A stretch of DNA of 5,938 nt. It comes from a virus. Taxonomy: Duplodnaviria; Heunggongvirae; Uroviricota; Caudoviricetes. Below are positions 1 through 5,938 of this stretch, one piece after another; the stretch's first letter is position 1, and each line of letters opens with the position of its first letter. The translations under genes were made by a program, and so were the position numbers. A model generated the notes under the pieces. That model had not been told where the DNA came from, did no database searches, and saw only the letters and a program-made list of their open reading frames with translations. Location: the IMG/VR virus record IMGVR_UViG_2695420596_000010. One strand, 5' to 3'.

Positions 1-678
1 GGTATAACAATCGACGATTGCTGGAAAGGCTGGGCCATACTCCTCCGGCAGAAGCAGAAAAAGCTTATTATGCTTCCATCGGAAACGATGATCTGGCAGC
101 CTGAGTTCACAGATAAAACACTCTCCAGGAAACCCGGGGCGGTTCACAGAGGATTCGCCAGAATTCTCGGACGAAAAAGGTTTTATATTGTCTTTTGTTA
201 GTTTGTCTTTTGTGTTTACCTGATTCGGGTAAACGCCTTTACCTGATTTGGGTAAACTTTTTTTACCTGATTCAGGTAAATTTACCTCTTTCAGGTAAAC
301 TTTATTTTTCTTACCTGATTCGGGTAATGTTGACCATTCACTGACCACATTATTAATGCCGATATTCCGCCCGCTCTGAATAAGAATCCCACGCTTTACC
401 AGAACGCTTTTTGCAGCAGAACACTTGTGCGGCAATATCCCGGTCAATTCGGAAAGTTGCTCGTTGCTCACCCAATCCAGTCTTTTATTAAAGCCATATG
501 TTTTGCGCATGACAGCCAGGAAGACCAGAAGCTGGTGCTGTGTTAATCCGGCCAGCATCACAGCTTCCAGCAACTCATTTGCAATGCGCGTATAACCATC
601 GTCGAGATCTGCCACGCGCCGCTCCTTTTGTGCCACATCCGGCACTGGAAAATTGAATATCTCAGCAGTGTTTGCCAT
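1..678 (-). CDS. Replication initiator, lambda O-like (N-terminal iteron-binding domain plus linker); partial, 3' end lies beyond the left edge of the window
   Basis: Manual translation of the minus strand from ATG (complement of 676-678), preceded by GGGAGG (complement of ~683-688), gives MANTAEIFNFPVPDVAQKERRVADLDDGYTRIANELLEAVMLAGLTQHQLLVFLAVMRKTYGFNKRLDWVSNEQLSELTGILPHKCSAAKSVLVKRGILIQSGRNIGINNVVSEWSTLPESGKK... with no stop before position 1. This resembles my recollection of the lambda O N-terminus (ADLDDGY..., LRKTYGWNK, SQLSE motifs). The iterons lie inside the coding sequence, as in lambda O. Absent from the supplied ORF track, presumably because the ORF is open at the window edge. 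Confidence 0.8.
   Translation of the reverse strand, partial: MANTAEIFNFPVPDVAQKERRVADLDDGYTRIANELLEAVMLAGLTQHQLLVFLAVMRKTYGFNKRLDWVSNEQLSELTGILPHKCSAAKSVLVKRGILIQSGRNIGINNVVSEWSTLPESGKKNKVYLKEVNLPESGKKSLPKSGKGVYPNQVNTKDKLTKDNIKPFSSENSGESSVNRPGFPGECFICELRLPDHRFRWKHNKLFLLLPEEYGPAFPAIVDCYT
181..214. other. AT-rich tract flanking the iterons (candidate DNA-unwinding element of the origin)
   Basis: ttttatattgtcttttgttagtttgtcttttgtg is strongly AT-rich and contains two copies of TTGTCTTTTGT. It lies on the gene-distal side of the iterons, the same relative arrangement as in ori-lambda. Confidence 0.5.
215..328. repeat. Origin iteron array: five ~19-bp direct repeats, each an internal dyad TTACC-N7-GGTAA
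   Basis: Read directly: TTTACCTGATTCGGGTAAAC (215-234), TTTACCTGATTTGGGTAAAC (238-257), TTTACCTGATTCAGGTAAA (262-280), TTTACCTCTTTCAGGTAAAC (281-300), TTACCTGATTCGGGTAAT (311-328). Spacing is 19-30 bp. Located within the O-like gene like ori-lambda iterons. Confidence 0.8.
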
Positions 679-764
679 AATTCCTCCCGCAATGAGTGTG
701 TTACGATTTGCACCTGAAAGTCGGTTCTGTTCGCGCAGACCGGCTTTCGCCATTTCCGAACCTG

Positions 765-1310
765 TCATATTGCCCCCAGCATGGTGGTGACCATCGCCAT
801 CAGTGGACCAGCCAAATCCGGGTCCACACGAAACATCGACACAATGCCTTCACTCATCTCCTTCAGTTTCTGGTGGCGTGGTGCGTTGAGAATGACAGCC
901 TGTTTTGCCTCACTGAGTTCCTTTTCCATTTCAGCCAGCCGAGCCATGTAGCTATCCTGCTCAACCAGGTGGCCGCGATATTCCAGCGGTAGTACCGCCA
1001 GAATTGCCGGGGTCAGTTCACGCACGTTATTTCGGTATTTTTCAGAATCGAATTTGTTATCGAGGAAGCGGAACAGCTTCTGGCGTGCACGGCTGACATC
1101 ATCAGGGAAATCGATGGTGCCGCCGCCCTGCTCCCGATACTCATTCACAATGAGTGCGGCAACAACATCCTGATTATCTGCAGCCGACCAGGCGCGAACG
1201 GCATCACGGATTTTTTCGTGGCCTGGCGCCTGTTTTGTTTGAGAACGATTTATCACCGCAGTCGGGCTAAATCCGCTAGTCTGTTGGTATGTAAGTGGTT
1301 GCATAGTCAT
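765..1310 (-). CDS. YdaT-like / CII-type phage regulatory protein (transcriptional regulator in the cII position)
   Basis: 181-aa ORF with ATG start and AAGG a few nt upstream, lying downstream of the cro-like gene on the same strand. Motifs EYREQGGG and PAILAVLPLEYRGHL resemble what I recall of YdaT-family proteins of Rac-type prophages. Family assignment is from memory only. Confidence 0.55.
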   Translation of the reverse strand: MTMQPLTYQQTSGFSPTAVINRSQTKQAPGHEKIRDAVRAWSAADNQDVVAALIVNEYREQGGGTIDFPDDVSRARQKLFRFLDNKFDSEKYRNNVRELTPAILAVLPLEYRGHLVEQDSYMARLAEMEKELSEAKQAVILNAPRHQKLKEMSEGIVSMFRVDPDLAGPLMAMVTTMLGAI

Positions 1311-1334
1311 TGCCTTATCAGTTAACGCCGCAGT

Positions 1335-1568
1335 TTAGGCGGCAGAATTACTCGCGTTAAACAATGGTGCGAGGTCGGGACGAATATCTGCTGGTTTAAT
1401 CTTTCCACCAGTGGCTGAGACAATTTTCATTACATAGCGGGCATCAATTCCGCCACCGTGTAGCCAACGCCAAACTGTGGGTTGGGCTACACCGCATAGA
1501 TCTGCCAGTCGTTTTTGACTACCTGTAATACTGATTGCGAGTTGAATGGTTTGATTTGTCATTATCAA
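1335..1568 (-). CDS. Cro/YdaS-like HTH DNA-binding protein (lytic-side repressor)
   Basis: 77-aa ORF divergent from the CI-like gene. Sequence GSQKRLADLCGVAQPTVWRWLHGG is a typical Cro/YdaS-type HTH. The track start at 1568 is a TTG codon; the in-frame ATG at 1560-1562 (MTNQ...) is the more likely start. Confidence 0.7.
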   Translation of the reverse strand: MIMTNQTIQLAISITGSQKRLADLCGVAQPTVWRWLHGGGIDARYVMKIVSATGGKIKPADIRPDLAPLFNASNSAA

Positions 1569-1593
1569 TTCCTATTGGTATTGCAATGAATGA

Positions 1594-1622
1594 ATAATAG
1601 CAATGCGTATTAATCCAAGCAA
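1594..1622 (-). promoter_or_regulatory. Candidate pR-like sigma70 promoter for the cro-like operon
   Basis: On the minus strand: -35 TTGCTT (complement of 1617-1622), 17-bp spacer, -10 TATTAT (complement of 1594-1599). The dyad at 1596-1611 overlaps the -10 and spacer. Found by eye, not scored. Confidence 0.4.
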
Positions 1623-1636
1623 TAGCAAAACGTGTT

Positions 1637-1665
1637 TTGACCATCAATACGCAAGCGTATAAATT
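1637..1665 (+). promoter_or_regulatory. Candidate pRM-like promoter producing a leaderless CI-like mRNA
   Basis: -35 TTGACC (1637-1642), 17-bp spacer, -10 TAAATT (1660-1665). The predicted start falls at about 1672-1673, on the ATG at 1673, and no Shine-Dalgarno precedes that ATG. The dyad at 1647-1660 overlaps the spacer. Confidence 0.4.
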
Positions 1666-1672
1666 AAAACTT

Positions 1673-2365
1673 ATGAAAAAAGAAACTCTTGCTGATCGCT
1701 TAAACCTAGCGATGGAACAATCTGGAATGTCTCAAGGCGCTCTTGCAAAGGCGTCTGGCGTAGCTCAACCCACAATCTGGAGACTGACAAGCGGCAACGC
1801 TCGCGGCTCAACAAAAATTGTTGAAATAGCTAATGCATTGGGTGTTCGAACAGAATGGCTCTCATCAGGCATAGGCCCGATGAGAAATGACGGTCAACAA
1901 TCAGGGAAGCCTGCTGTCAGCCATTCAAAATACTTCAAAATTGACGTTCTTGATATAGAAGTCAGTGCCGGGCCGGGAGTCATCAACCGTGAGTTTGTAG
2001 AAGTTCTACGCTCGGTTGAGTACTCGTTTGACGATGCTCGTCACATGTTCGATGGTAGGAAGGCAGAAAATATCCGCATCATTAACGTACGCGGTGACAG
2101 CATGTCAGGAACGATCGAACCAGGTGATCTTCTGTTCGTTGATATCACGGTTAAATCTTTCGACGGTGATGGTATCTATGCGTTTCTGTATGACGACACA
2201 GCCCATGTAAAGCGCCTGCAAATGATGAAGGATAAGCTGCTAGTTATCTCTGATAACAAGAGCTACTCACCGTGGGACCCGATCGAGAAAGACGAGATGA
2301 ACCGGGTATTCATCTTCGGGAAAGTCATCGGAAGCATGCCGCAGACGTATAGGAAGCATGGGTAG
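1673..2365 (+). CDS. CI-like prophage repressor: N-terminal XRE-type HTH plus C-terminal S24 (LexA-like) autopeptidase domain
   Basis: The track ORF 1637..2365 begins at a TTG; the first ATG is 1673 (MKKETLADRLNLAMEQSGMSQGALAKASGVAQPTIWRL = HTH). The C-terminal half has the S24 signatures: a candidate Ala-Gly cleavage site (EVSAGPG), the serine motif RGDSMSGTIEPGDLLFVD and the lysine motif HVKRL. This implies RecA/SOS-inducible autocleavage. Confidence 0.85.
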   Translation: MKKETLADRLNLAMEQSGMSQGALAKASGVAQPTIWRLTSGNARGSTKIVEIANALGVRTEWLSSGIGPMRNDGQQSGKPAVSHSKYFKIDVLDIEVSAGPGVINREFVEVLRSVEYSFDDARHMFDGRKAENIRIINVRGDSMSGTIEPGDLLFVDITVKSFDGDGIYAFLYDDTAHVKRLQMMKDKLLVISDNKSYSPWDPIEKDEMNRVFIFGKVIGSMPQTYRKHG

Positions 2366-2476
2366 TGAAGGACGTGTCAACTCTATTTTGTAAGCTATCC
2401 AGACTCACAGTTGCAGATCGACGAGTAACTTACATACAGCACAAAAAAACAATATGCACGTGCTTTTAGACTAGAC

Positions 2477-2491
2477 TTACCATAATGGTAA
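2477..2491. promoter_or_regulatory. Palindrome TTACC-ATAAT-GGTAA at the 5' end of the toxin gene; candidate autoregulatory operator of the TAC operon
   Basis: Perfect 5-bp inverted arms separated by 5 bp, overlapping the ATG at 2485. MqsA-family antitoxins are known to bind short palindromes in their own promoters; the assignment here is inference. Confidence 0.4.
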
Positions 2492-2895
2492 CAAGTATGA
2501 TTCTTAGCAGATATGTGGGAACTCCTCCCCGTGATGGCGAGGACAGAAAGATTCAAGGTGGTCCGCTTTATTTAGATATCATTGATTTGATTGATGAATG
2601 TGACACACTGCCTTGGACTAGACGGTGTATCAGGGATGTTCAATCGCTTTCTTTAGATGCAGATGACATCAAATCTATGGTGATAAAAGCAGTCACTAAA
2701 GGGAGATTTCTAGGTTCAGAATGGTGTCAAGGCAGTAAACCAGGTGTATGGGCAGCTTGTGATGCTTATAGCTTTGAGCACTCATTTTGGTGCCAAGCTA
2801 TGCATAAAGAACTTAATAACGAGTTCTACATTAAATTTTTTGTAAACATTACTGGCAATGTAGTGCTTACAGTATCTCTTCATCTCTCTAATTGA
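2485..2895 (+). CDS. MqsR-like toxin (type II toxin-antitoxin toxin, RelE/MqsR-fold mRNA interferase family)
   Basis: 136-aa ORF directly upstream of an MqsA-like antitoxin. By eye it aligns with E. coli MqsR (PLYLDIIDLI...LSLDADD..., EFYIKFFVNITGNVVLTVS versus MqsR QVYLKITVIHDVLIVSF). Toxin-before-antitoxin order is characteristic of mqsRA. The start is uncertain: 2485 has no clear RBS and 2497 is an in-frame alternative. The region is AT-rich. Confidence 0.6.
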   Translation: MVTSMILSRYVGTPPRDGEDRKIQGGPLYLDIIDLIDECDTLPWTRRCIRDVQSLSLDADDIKSMVIKAVTKGRFLGSEWCQGSKPGVWAACDAYSFEHSFWCQAMHKELNNEFYIKFFVNITGNVVLTVSLHLSN

Positions 2896-2919
2896 GTGAT
2901 GATAAATGAGGATTTTTAT

Positions 2920-3507
2920 ATGAGAAACAACAACATATGTCCAGTTTGTGGTGTAGGTCATCTCACCGTGGAGATGGAGTATGATGATGTTACTTATAAA
3001 GGGGAAACAAAAAATCTCCCAATAAGGTTTTCTGTGTGTGATCAATGTGGTTCGGAAACTGCCACACCAGTCGATTTACGAGAAAACAAACGAATTTTCA
3101 ATGAATACAAAAAGTCTATCGATGGACTTTTAACAGGAAAAGAATTAAAAAAAATTAGAACTGAAGTATGGATGATAACCCAGCAAAAGGCATCCTCTAT
3201 ATTTGGTGGGGGGCCTAAGGCATTTTCCAAGTATGAATCTGATGATGTCATTCAATCAGAAGCAATGGATAAACTGATGCGTTTAGCAGCAGAAGTTCCT
3301 GATGCATTCAAAAGGTTACGGGAATTATCTGGCGAAATCAAAGTTGAAAGAACAGTCTCATCATCTAAATCTTTACCTATATGGAAATCTGAAGCAAAAG
3401 CACAATTTGAAAACGATGATCAGGGATTTGACAGCAAATCACCAGCCCAAACAAAAATGAATCAAACATCAATAAAGATAAAAACTGTTGCTAAGCGGGT
3501 AGCATGA
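2920..3507 (+). CDS. MqsA-like antitoxin: N-terminal zinc-ribbon, central XRE-type HTH, and a ~60-70-aa C-terminal extension (candidate chaperone-addiction segment)
   Basis: Motifs CPVCGVGHL and VCDQCGSE (zinc ribbon), then ITQQKASSIFGGGPKAFSKYESDD, closely resembling the MqsA HTH (LTQKEASEIFGGGVNAFSRYEKG). GAGGA (2908-2912) sits 7 nt upstream of ATG 2920. The track ORF begins at GTG 2896, immediately after the toxin stop (2893-2895). The C-terminal tail (from ~3300) has no counterpart in the 131-aa E. coli MqsA. Confidence 0.8.
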   Translation: MRNNNICPVCGVGHLTVEMEYDDVTYKGETKNLPIRFSVCDQCGSETATPVDLRENKRIFNEYKKSIDGLLTGKELKKIRTEVWMITQQKASSIFGGGPKAFSKYESDDVIQSEAMDKLMRLAAEVPDAFKRLRELSGEIKVERTVSSSKSLPIWKSEAKAQFENDDQGFDSKSPAQTKMNQTSIKIKTVAKRVA

Positions 3508-4007
3508 TGAATGAACTTCTTAGATCAGCAATAGACGCATTATCAATAATGCATATCAATATCAGAGAATCTAACTTTGCTTTTTCTGAAGGGTATAATA
3601 GCTTTAACTTCAACAGCATAAATAAGCAAACACAATCATTTCGTAAGATAAAAAAAATCGAAGCTATTGAATTAGTAAGTGACGATGACTCATTAAAAAA
3701 TGAGCTATATTACTCTTTTCACTACTCAGTTGGGCTTAGATTTATTGCAAAATCCGAAGAAACATCTAAAGACGAAAATGATGTTGATACAATTTTTTCT
3801 ATAGAAGCAATTTTTGAGGCGATATATCGCTCAAAGAGAGAATTATCTAAAGAAGAGTTAGAAGAATTTGCTAAGCAAAATGTAGGTTTTAATGTATGGC
3901 CTTTTTGGCGAGAGTATGTTCAAAACAGCACATCCAGAATGGGAATTACTACAATAGCTATACCATTCTTTAAATTCAATAAATCAGACATACCTTCATT
4001 AGATTAA
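3504..4007 (+). CDS. SecB-like chaperone (third component of a toxin-antitoxin-chaperone module)
   Basis: 167-aa ORF whose ATG overlaps the antitoxin stop (ATGA at 3504-3507), suggesting translational coupling. The C-terminal half aligns by eye with E. coli SecB (TIFSIEAIF versus GIFSIAGI; NVWPFWREYVQNSTSRMGITTIAIPFFKFN versus [29 protein letters not shown]). Confidence 0.7.
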   Translation: MMNELLRSAIDALSIMHINIRESNFAFSEGYNSFNFNSINKQTQSFRKIKKIEAIELVSDDDSLKNELYYSFHYSVGLRFIAKSEETSKDENDVDTIFSIEAIFEAIYRSKRELSKEELEEFAKQNVGFNVWPFWREYVQNSTSRMGITTIAIPFFKFNKSDIPSLD

Positions 4008-4021
4008 ATTCAAATATAACT

Positions 4022-4048
4022 CCCGGCTACCGTGCCGGGTTTTCTTTT
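4022..4048 (+). terminator. Rho-independent terminator of the TAC operon
   Basis: Stem CCCGGC (4022-4027), loop TACCGT, stem GCCGGG (4034-4039), followed by TTTTCTTTT (4040-4048), 15 nt after the chaperone stop codon. Confidence 0.65.
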
Positions 4049-4189
4049 GCCCTCCCCCCATCACACAAACCGTTCAAAAAACCACCACGACCTCACTTCA
4101 GTTATCGCTATGCGATGCAAGTCACAAAATTAATTCTTTTTGCTATCAAACATTTAATATCAAAACACATCAACTAATAGCAATAAGCA

Positions 4190-4218
4190 TTGATATCACC
4201 AATAGCAATAGCTATTAT
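4190..4218 (+). promoter_or_regulatory. Candidate pL-like promoter with overlapping operator dyad (OL-like)
   Basis: -35 TTGATA (4190-4195), 17-bp spacer, -10 TATTAT (4213-4218), reading towards int. The dyad AATAGC-AATA-GCTATT (4201-4216) overlaps the spacer and -10, and matches 13 of 16 positions of the OR-region site AATAGCAATGCGTATT (1596-1611). Confidence 0.5.
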
Positions 4219-4411
4219 CACCATATCGCAACAACACAACGATACGGCAACCACCTGATTCACCGTTGCGATGACCGCTTAGATCCGCAGCTTGAATTTC
4301 AGCAGGCTTCGGGGAGTGCGAGGGATGAAACGGACGCGTGAACGTCGGTGTGACCAGCTGAAATCAACTCAACATTTCATACCTTAGTCGCTTCAACGAG
4401 GCGGCTTAGTT

Positions 4412-4702
4412 ATGACAACCGGCGGCCATCCACCGCCTGAATACGCGCAGAAGTCTTTATATGTTCAGCAGCCCAGCTTACGGGCAGGAGTTTTTATGGT
4501 TCATCAACATTACGGAACGCAGACCGTTAATCGCGGTGCGGTCATGCCAGGAATGCTGGTCAAACGCAAAGATGGTACCTGGACTGCATCAGCTAATTTA
4601 CACGGACGACTTTATCTGCATCGCGGCATTGAGCGCACTTATACCCGTGACTTGCTCGTGGAAGTTTTTCTCGACGGACGCGGCAACGGTCTGAATCACT
4701 AA
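4412..4702 (+). CDS. Hypothetical protein (no recognisable family)
   Basis: 96-aa ORF with ATG and a weak GAGG ~10 nt upstream, between the pL-like promoter and int. No recognisable motif; it is not lambda-Xis-like or N-like. An alternative-frame ORF (4461..4694) overlaps it, so coding status is uncertain. Confidence 0.3.
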   Translation: MTTGGHPPPEYAQKSLYVQQPSLRAGVFMVHQHYGTQTVNRGAVMPGMLVKRKDGTWTASANLHGRLYLHRGIERTYTRDLLVEVFLDGRGNGLNH

Positions 4703-4777
4703 TCCCCTTTCCTGTTTTCCGAATCAGCCTGGCATTCCGCGGGCGATTTTTTCACAGCCATTTTCAGGAGTTCAGCC

Positions 4778-5938
4778 ATGAACGCTTATTACATTCAGGA
4801 TCGTCTTGAGGCTCAGAGCTGGGCGCGTCACTACCAGCAGATCGCCCGTGAAGAGAAAGAGGCAGAACTGGCAGACGACATGGAAAAAGGCCTGCCCCAG
4901 CACCTGTTTGAATCGCTATGTATCGATCATTTGCAACGCCACGGGGCCAGCAAAAAAGCCATTAAAGAGTTTGGATTAGGCAGAGACAGGCGAATCGCAA
5001 TCACTGAAGCTATACAGGCCAACATTGAGTTATTTTCAGGACACAAACACAAGCCTCTGACAGCGAGAATCAACAGTGATAATTCCGTTACGTTACATTC
5101 ATGGCTTGATCGCTACGAAAAAATCCTGGCCAGCAGAGGAATCAAACAGAAGACACTCATAAATTACATGAGCAAAATTAAAGCAATAAGGAGGGGTCTG
5201 CCTGATGCTCCACTTGAAGACATCACCACAAAAGAAATTGCGGCAATGCTCAATGGATACATAAACGAGGGCAAGGCGGCGTCAGCCAAGTTAATCAGAT
5301 CAACACTGAGCGATGCATTCCGAGAGGCAATAGCTGAAGGCCATATAACAACAAACCCTGTCGCTGCCACTCGCGCAGCAAAATCAGAGGTAAGGAGATC
5401 AAGACTTACGGCTGACGAATACCTGAAAATTTATCAAGCAGCAGAATCATCACCATGTTGGCTCAGACTTGCAATGGAACTGGCTGTTGTTACCGGGCAA
5501 CGAGTTGGTGATTTATGCGAAATGAAGTGGTCTGATATCGTAGATGGATATCTTTATGTCGAGCAAAGCAAAACAGGCGTAAAAATTGCCATCCCAACAG
5601 CATTGCATGTTGATGCTCTCGGAATATCAATGAAGGAAACACTTGATAAATGCAAAGAGATTCTTGGCGGAGAAACCATAATTGCATCTACTCGTCGCGA
5701 ACCGCTTTCATCCGGCACAGTATCAAGGTATTTTATGCGCGCACGAAAAGCATCAGGTCTTTCCTTCGAAGGGGATCCGCCTACCTTTCACGAGTTGCGC
5801 AGTTTGTCTGCAAGACTCTATGAGAAGCAGATAAGCGATAAGTTTGCTCAACATCTTCTCGGGCATAAGTCGGACACCATGGCATCACAGTATCGTGATG
5901 ACAGAGGCAGGGAGTGGGACAAAATTGAAATCAAATAA
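4778..5938 (+). CDS. int: Tyrosine site-specific integrase, lambda Int family; catalytic region near-identical to lambda Int, N-terminal ~66 aa unrelated (chimeric)
   Basis: From [38 protein letters not shown]... to the C-terminal ...[49 protein letters not shown] the protein matches my recollection of lambda Int almost residue for residue, including the catalytic motifs (R in GQRVGDL, HELR, LLGH, tyrosine in SQYRDD). The first ~66 aa ([21 protein letters not shown]...) do not match the lambda Int arm-binding domain. AGGAG lies 7 nt upstream of the ATG. Confidence 0.9.

Follow-up and report, generated by a model that had tools for sequence, protein, structure and literature searches.

The origin of phage lambda is described as a set of iterons together with a High-AT region (PMC6022878), and the initiators of lambda, P22 and L each bind different iterons that are located within their own genes (PMC8022706). 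The C-terminal region of lambda O holds the P-binding domain, and alleles of O that stop at residue 160 or 205, or from which only the last 35 codons are missing, are replication-null (PMC6022878). When a prophage that cannot be excised carries O, P and ori, derepression is lethal, a phenomenon known as 'replicative killing', and survivors obtained in the laboratory have an insertion or deletion in either O or P (PMC6022878).

We have analysed a window of 5,938 nucleotides (the whole stretch of DNA studied here, numbered from its first base) that contains the early region of a lambdoid prophage remnant. We think it very probable that the segment at 147-345 is the lambdoid origin of a replication module of the PhiR70_1/4A7/Perceval type, in which the initiator circuit has been broken by an insertion sequence (IS) within gene O. 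The lambdoid type of origin is itself already known and is textbook material. The anatomy of the region, its homology to characterized phages, the IS junction and the truncation of O are all observed directly. The features of the initiator gene and of the origin are as follows.

147-678, minus strand: truncated O-like initiator gene of 177 native codons, with its ATG at 676-678 and GGAGG at 683-687
334-618, minus strand: coding region of the N-terminal origin-binding domain, residues 21-115
311-327: iteron 1, TTACCTGATTCGGGTAA, an extra copy that lambda does not have, located 29 bp upstream of iteron 2
282-298: iteron 2, TTACCTCTTTCAGGTAA, aligning with lambda ITN1
263-279: iteron 3, TTACCTGATTCAGGTAA, a perfect palindrome about its central base, aligning with lambda ITN2
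239-255: iteron 4, TTACCTGATTTGGGTAA, aligning with lambda ITN3
216-232: iteron 5, TTACCTGATTCGGGTAA, nearest the AT-rich tract and aligning with lambda ITN4
177-215, minus strand: AT-rich unwinding tract, ACACAAAAGACAAACTAACAAAAGACAATATAAAACCTT in the O sense, homologous to the 39-bp High-AT region of lambda (39119-39157)
147-176, minus strand: origin right arm, an imperfect palindrome about GAATTC (TTCGTCCGAGAATTCTGGCGAATCCTCTG) that codes for ...SSENSGESS

Residues 21-115 of the O-like product match Pfam PF04492 Phage_rep_O (E = 2e-34) and NCBIfam TIGR01610 phage_O_Nterm (E = 5e-24); a search of PDB sequences with the O fragment returned no solved relative. Because this domain ends at residue 115 and the iterons code for residues 118-155, the iterons fall within the linker, and the proposal of a first-pass annotation that the iterons and the AT-rich tract occupy the linker-coding part of the initiator gene is upheld. 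The start of O is ambiguous (679-768, minus strand). A PGAP start equivalent to 768, which creates an ATGA overlap with the YdaT stop codon, gives a product of 339 aa, a second gene caller prefers 753 (334 aa), and the start at 678, with a lambda-like MANTAEIF and the GGAGG ribosome-binding site, gives 309 aa.

A repeat search of the whole window finds five direct repeats of a single family (215-241, 238-264, 262-288, 281-307, and 310-336), and each of the five units pairs with itself and with the others as an inverted repeat, indicating internal dyad symmetry. When up to three mismatches are allowed, the 17-mer TTACCTGATTCAGGTAA occurs at exactly five sites in the window, those of the iterons listed above, and because it is a palindrome each site matches on both strands, such that 10 matches are observed compared with 0.01 expected from shuffled sequences. 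The consensus is TTACC-N7-GGTAA, a palindrome of 17-19 bp present in five copies, with start-to-start spacings of 29/19/24/23 counted from iteron 1 toward the AT-rich tract. The five dyad-symmetric iterons reported earlier are therefore confirmed by both the repeat search and the match count, and translation of the minus strand from the ATG at 678 yields the repetitive peptide that had been quoted for them. None of the papers covered by a full-text search contains the iteron strings. An Rfam scan of the window placed rliD over the iterons at E = 0.45, with 15.9 bits against a gathering score of 50, and we rejected this chance-level match as an artefact of the repeats.

The GC content is 0.235 at 181-214 and 0.256 at 177-215, as compared with 0.439 for the window as a whole, and the O-sense strand of 177-215 is 67% purine, a strong strand bias. 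Lower GC than that of the AT-rich tract is found elsewhere in the window, at 2803-2813 and 4122-4129, and we rejected AT-richness as a sole criterion for an origin because of these lower-GC 39-mers; the significance of the tract derives from its homology to the lambda High-AT region and not from its composition alone. The right arm at 147-176 is homologous to lambda 39158-39187, the imperfect palindrome that includes the EcoRI site, with one base differing in the alignment. The earlier recognition of an AT-rich tract at 181-214 beside the iterons is thus borne out by its low GC and its lambda homology, as is that of a lambda-type origin within an O-like gene, since iterons, AT-rich tract and right arm follow one another in the same order as in lambda. 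With both the iterons and the High-AT region of the published ori-lambda description present (PMC6022878), the origin DNA looks structurally complete with respect to the lambda-defined minimal elements, and homology and conservation suggest that these iterons would bind a cognate initiator and support replication.

At the left edge of the window the phage sequence gives way to an IS element.

1-146, plus strand: right end of an IS3-family element of the IS1203/IS629 type, with transposase C-terminus ...YNNRRLLERLGHTPPAEAEKAYYASIGNDDLAA, a stop codon at 103-105, and the inverted repeat end ...GGGGCGGTTCA at 146
147-149: candidate 3-bp target-site duplication, CAG, formed by the first phage bases beside the IS end, as expected if this is a simple insertion

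Positions 1-146 are identical at 145 of 146 bases to an annotated IS1203 copy in O157:H7 TW14359, with the same last base in both, and plus-strand positions 3-104 code for the C-terminus of the transposase (OrfB) just inside a terminal inverted repeat ending ...CA; the left end of the O157 copy reads TGAACCGCCCCGG.... All phage matches start at 147, and an intact relative reads ...GGTTGGTCAGAGGATTC... at the insertion site. The IS is situated 31 bp beyond the AT-rich tract, and the last intact codon of O is 177, which corresponds to lambda O residue 167, with codon 178 split by the element. The intact relative encodes 309 aa from the ATG at 678, such that the O of the window is without 132 C-terminal residues, and in a protein alignment everything past SSENSGESS is missing; the relative continues ...GAATCCTCTG up to the break and ACCAACCAGAAAAC... 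beyond it, where it encodes a C-terminal domain nearly identical to the one in lambda O. The minus-strand frame stays open below 147 only because of read-through into the IS, and it would stop 29 codons past the window edge if the element matches the O157 copy. An open reading frame that continues past the edge of a sequence cannot be taken as evidence that the gene is intact, and here the frame remains open through the end of an IS.

The first-pass annotation assumed that the C-terminal domain of the initiator lay past the window, but phage homology ends at 147 and the IS occupies 1-146. It had listed disruption of the initiator gene just beyond the window as counting against its reading, and a disruption was found, situated inside the window and caused by the IS that ends at 146. 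As judged from sequence, the prophage remnant cannot initiate replication by itself, since its O is without the P-recruiting C-terminal domain, and it is predicted to be replication-dead on its own. The suggestion that it might still replicate on induction does not survive the finding that O is interrupted after codon 177, as comparable truncations of lambda O are null (PMC6022878). We also note that in one draft genome containing the same prophage remnant, O is split into ORFs of 178 aa and 124 aa with no IS present (L015, 4973-5976), reflecting a frameshift or a sequencing error.

The origin allele is widespread. Sequences with at least 97% identity to 147-345 over at least 80% of its length are present in 2,404 of 5,426 complete E. 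coli genomes (~44%), in up to five copies per genome, and they are always annotated 'replication protein'. Over 181-340, the complete phages PhiR34_1, PhiR68_2 and PhiR70_1 are 100% identical to the window, and a dozen more are over 98% identical. PhiR70_1, PhiR34_1, PhiR68_2, 4A7, 1W/3W and Perceval share the same origin allele (99-100% over 181-340), although they have a full-length O followed by P and ren, whereas the O of the window carries the IS. In PhiR70_1 (48.8 kb), the intact O-P-ren genes are accompanied by the same repressor and cro-side genes as in the window. Twelve complete E. coli genomes contain a defective prophage beside ybhC to which positions 147-5938 are 99.5-100% identical, and in these O is followed by P, ren and DLP12-like genes. 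In O157:H7 the same O/ori allele is intact and the neighbouring P gene is split by IS1203 with a 3-bp CAT duplication (L002, TW14359, 899-2913), which represents a separate inactivation of this replication module by an IS. In thousands of genomes the five-iteron TTACC-N7-GGTAA array now stands under 'replication protein' and could be given a rep_origin annotation; beyond annotation the importance of the locus is slight, and it is an ordinary decayed prophage relic.

The remainder of the early region provides the setting in which the loss of O can be considered.

765-1304, minus strand: cII-position gene encoding a YdaT-domain protein, 179 aa
1335-1568, minus strand: cro-position gene encoding a YdaS-type HTH protein, 77 aa
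653-681, plus strand: putative pO-like antisense promoter (TTGAAT, 17 nt, TG-CATAAT), identified by consensus scan
1637-2365, plus strand: cI-like repressor with an S24-peptidase domain
2485-4007, plus strand: block of three genes that separates the repressor from the kil region
4778-5938, plus strand: Gam-integrase fusion, in frame, joining the first 64 residues of Gam to a lambda-type integrase

The minus-strand order of YdaS, YdaT and O fits a rightward operon. A consensus scan of the minus strand over 1-1750 found no promoter-like site, and the cro-side promoter was not located. The YdaS/YdaT pair are 'toxins' by Pfam name, whereas in phage records these genes appear as Cro and cII. The pO-like site at 653-681 has the same position over the start of O as lambda pO when the two regions are aligned. 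Lambda pO drives the oop RNA, and downstream of the pO-like site we found neither an oop-like terminator nor an Rfam match.

The products of the three-gene block are a 136-aa protein with no family hit, a 203-aa MqsA-family antitoxin (TIGR03830, E = 7e-33), and a 167-aa protein with weak similarity to SecB (Pfam E = 0.008), which PGAP names 'protein-export chaperone SecB'. The layout of the block resembles that of toxin-antitoxin-chaperone modules, with the 136-aa protein as the candidate toxin. The first two of these genes are at the same place in PhiR70_1, whose locus is cut before the third. A 68-aa ORF at 4496-4702 (plus strand), just upstream of the Gam-integrase fusion, is similar to KilR, the FtsZ inhibitor; it scores 58 bits against NCBIfam PRK11354, below the cut-off of 92, and Pfam KilR is found in relatives.

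The Gam-integrase fusion shows that a deletion removed everything between gam and int. The fused integrase is without the start of its arm-binding domain, and PGAP marks both halves as pseudogenes in relatives. With its integrase fused to Gam and the start of the arm-binding domain missing, the remnant is probably non-excisable. An identical 386-aa Gam-Int product is indexed in 417 blocks of an assembly collection.

Our favoured account of the locus draws on the behaviour of lambda. In the intact phages, dimers of the O N-terminal domain would bind the palindromic iterons, the resulting bent O-DNA complex would destabilise the AT-rich tract alongside, and the O C-terminal domain would bring in the P-DnaB complex, with rightward transcription from the cro-side promoter assisting; both the binding of O to the iterons and the unwinding step are what we infer from lambda. 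In the window, the IS1203/IS629-type element cuts O after codon 177, and the product would be at most an N-terminal DNA-binding fragment with IS read-through that could not recruit the helicase loader. This would leave a structurally complete origin sequence within a replicon that is unable to fire by itself.

The loss of O would be expected to be tolerated, or even selected, since working O, P and ori in a non-excisable prophage kill the derepressed host. The IS in O may thus be a natural counterpart of the mutations seen in survivors of replicative killing. It resembles in this respect the RK- cryptic lambda prophages, which are also non-excisable fragments that have lost replication initiation through insertion in O or P (PMC6022878), although those arose in laboratory selections, whereas the selective history and rationale proposed here are ones that we infer. 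The O157:H7 module with IS1203 in P is comparable to those prophages too. Loss of O is not obligatory, however, as O-P remains intact in relatives that share the Gam-Int fusion, and this is so in 26 of the 26 contigs read that contain the identical fusion.

There are several alternative readings to consider, and two of these would leave the locus with some residual activity. In the first, the origin DNA fires in trans, with a co-resident prophage or a superinfecting phage of the same O/ori allele supplying O and P and thereby promoting replication in situ. We regard this as possible, if on balance unlikely. The origin DNA is intact with respect to the lambda-defined minimal elements, the allele is so common (with up to five copies in some E. 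coli genomes) that a cognate helper is plausible, and lambda O can complement in trans when provided from a plasmid (PMC6022878). However, lambda origins depend on cis transcription from pR, and the cI-like repressor of the remnant itself (1637-2365) would prevent this. In addition, the IS situated 31 bp from the AT-rich tract alters the right flank of the origin, and any truncated O fragment produced at the locus could compete for iteron binding.

In the second, incoming phages of the same specificity would have their initiator titrated or poisoned by the iteron array, possibly in combination with the N-terminal O fragment, giving exclusion at the level of replication. We note in this regard that ori-lambda plasmids block lambda replication (PMC4488673), that the plasmid inhibition phenotype needs ITN3-4 and oop transcription (PMC3349717), and that a pO-like promoter is retained at 653-681. 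For this reading, as for the first-pass suggestion that the iterons could serve as an incompatibility or titration determinant, the precedents are restricted to multicopy plasmids carrying ori-lambda (PMC4488673, PMC3349717), whereas here there is one chromosomal copy; moreover, neither an oop-like terminator nor an oop-like RNA was detected, repression of the rightward operon would extend to the O fragment, and the presence of the IS junction in no other genome searched argues against a selected trait. Decoy or titration activity by one repressed chromosomal copy seems unlikely on these grounds, and we consider this reading as a whole to be quite improbable. The further proposal that the relic, with its intact iterons and N-terminal O fragment, has been domesticated as a replication-interference defence, acting either as a decoy or as a dominant-negative initiator, is very doubtful. 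If it were true, superinfection by lambdoid phages that share this very common replication specificity would be blocked by the relic.

The rarity of the IS junction also bears on whether it could be an artefact of assembly, for instance through the joining or breaking-off of a contig at a repeat, with O in reality intact. A 38-nt string spanning the IS/O junction gave 0 matches in genome_contigs, metagenome_contigs and viral_contigs, and among complete E. coli genomes none spans 1-5938 in one piece, the best matches starting at 147. The absence of the junction from other genomes of these collections and the intact O-P in all 26 of the contigs with the same Gam-Int fusion would both be accommodated by misassembly. 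The break, however, coincides exactly with the final base of the terminal inverted repeat of the IS, beside uninterrupted phage sequence, which argues for a real transposition, and in O157:H7 the adjacent P gene of this replication module has received an independent IS1203 insertion. We therefore think an artefact most improbable, and from the absence of the junction in the collections and the complete E. coli genomes the insertion appears to be private to the source strain.

The reading that the repeats are merely repetitive coding sequence (LPESGKK repeats) and play no part as DNA is so improbable that it can be set aside, for although the iterons do specify a repetitive peptide, every unit is a DNA palindrome that is not demanded by any peptide repeat, the palindrome arms and spacing are kept across diverged phages while the centres vary, and the location and flanking sequences show homology to the lambda origin as defined by experiment.

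The interpretation of 147-345 as a lambdoid origin with an interrupted initiator can be placed alongside the better-known systems. When the region is aligned against the annotated lambda origin, the two share a location in the linker-coding part of O and a progression from iterons to AT-rich tract to palindromic right arm, with homology of the AT-rich tract and right arm extending through lambda 39119-39187. The four AT-proximal iterons align with ITN1-4 with nearly the same geometry (spacings of 19/24/23 here and 20/24/23 in lambda), and the intact relatives have a lambda-type O C-terminal domain followed by P and ren. The two differ in the sequence of the iterons, TTACC-N7-GGTAA here as compared with ATCCCTC-N4-GAGGGA in lambda, in their number (five rather than four), and in the interruption of the gene by the IS after the equivalent of lambda residue 167. 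The O of the intact relative is 70% identical to lambda O, and the differences are nearly all in the N-terminal half.

Klebsiella phages with ~80% DNA identity have five iterons with the identical spacing of 29/19/24/23, including the extra iteron. Among 15 iteron instances, the TTACC and GGTAA arms are invariant or nearly so, and the central bases and spacers vary. P22 gene 18 and mEp213 match the window at ~73% DNA identity across part of the N-terminal domain and the origin, with related but distinct arms (TTTACC...GGTAAA in P22, and TTAGC-N7-GCTAA in mEp213) and the same AT-rich box, ACACAAAAGACA...ACAAAAGACAATA, which is invariant in P22, mEp213 and the Klebsiella phages. P22 differs in having four iterons whose arms are closer together, and in a C-terminal domain that pairs with a DnaB-type helicase (gene 12) and not with P. 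The Stx phages 933W and P27 also have iterons beyond the core four (six in all), on the side away from the AT-rich tract, although theirs are lambda-type iterons with two extra copies, whereas the window has a single extra copy with a different specificity. The two distal iterons of Stx phages bind O weakly, yet are needed for efficient replication (PMC7466680), and with six iterons in those phages the single extra distal iteron here is unremarkable. The arrangement as a whole is an instance of a known modular pattern, in which a variable specificity module composed of the initiator N-terminal domain and its iterons sits beside a conserved unwinding element.
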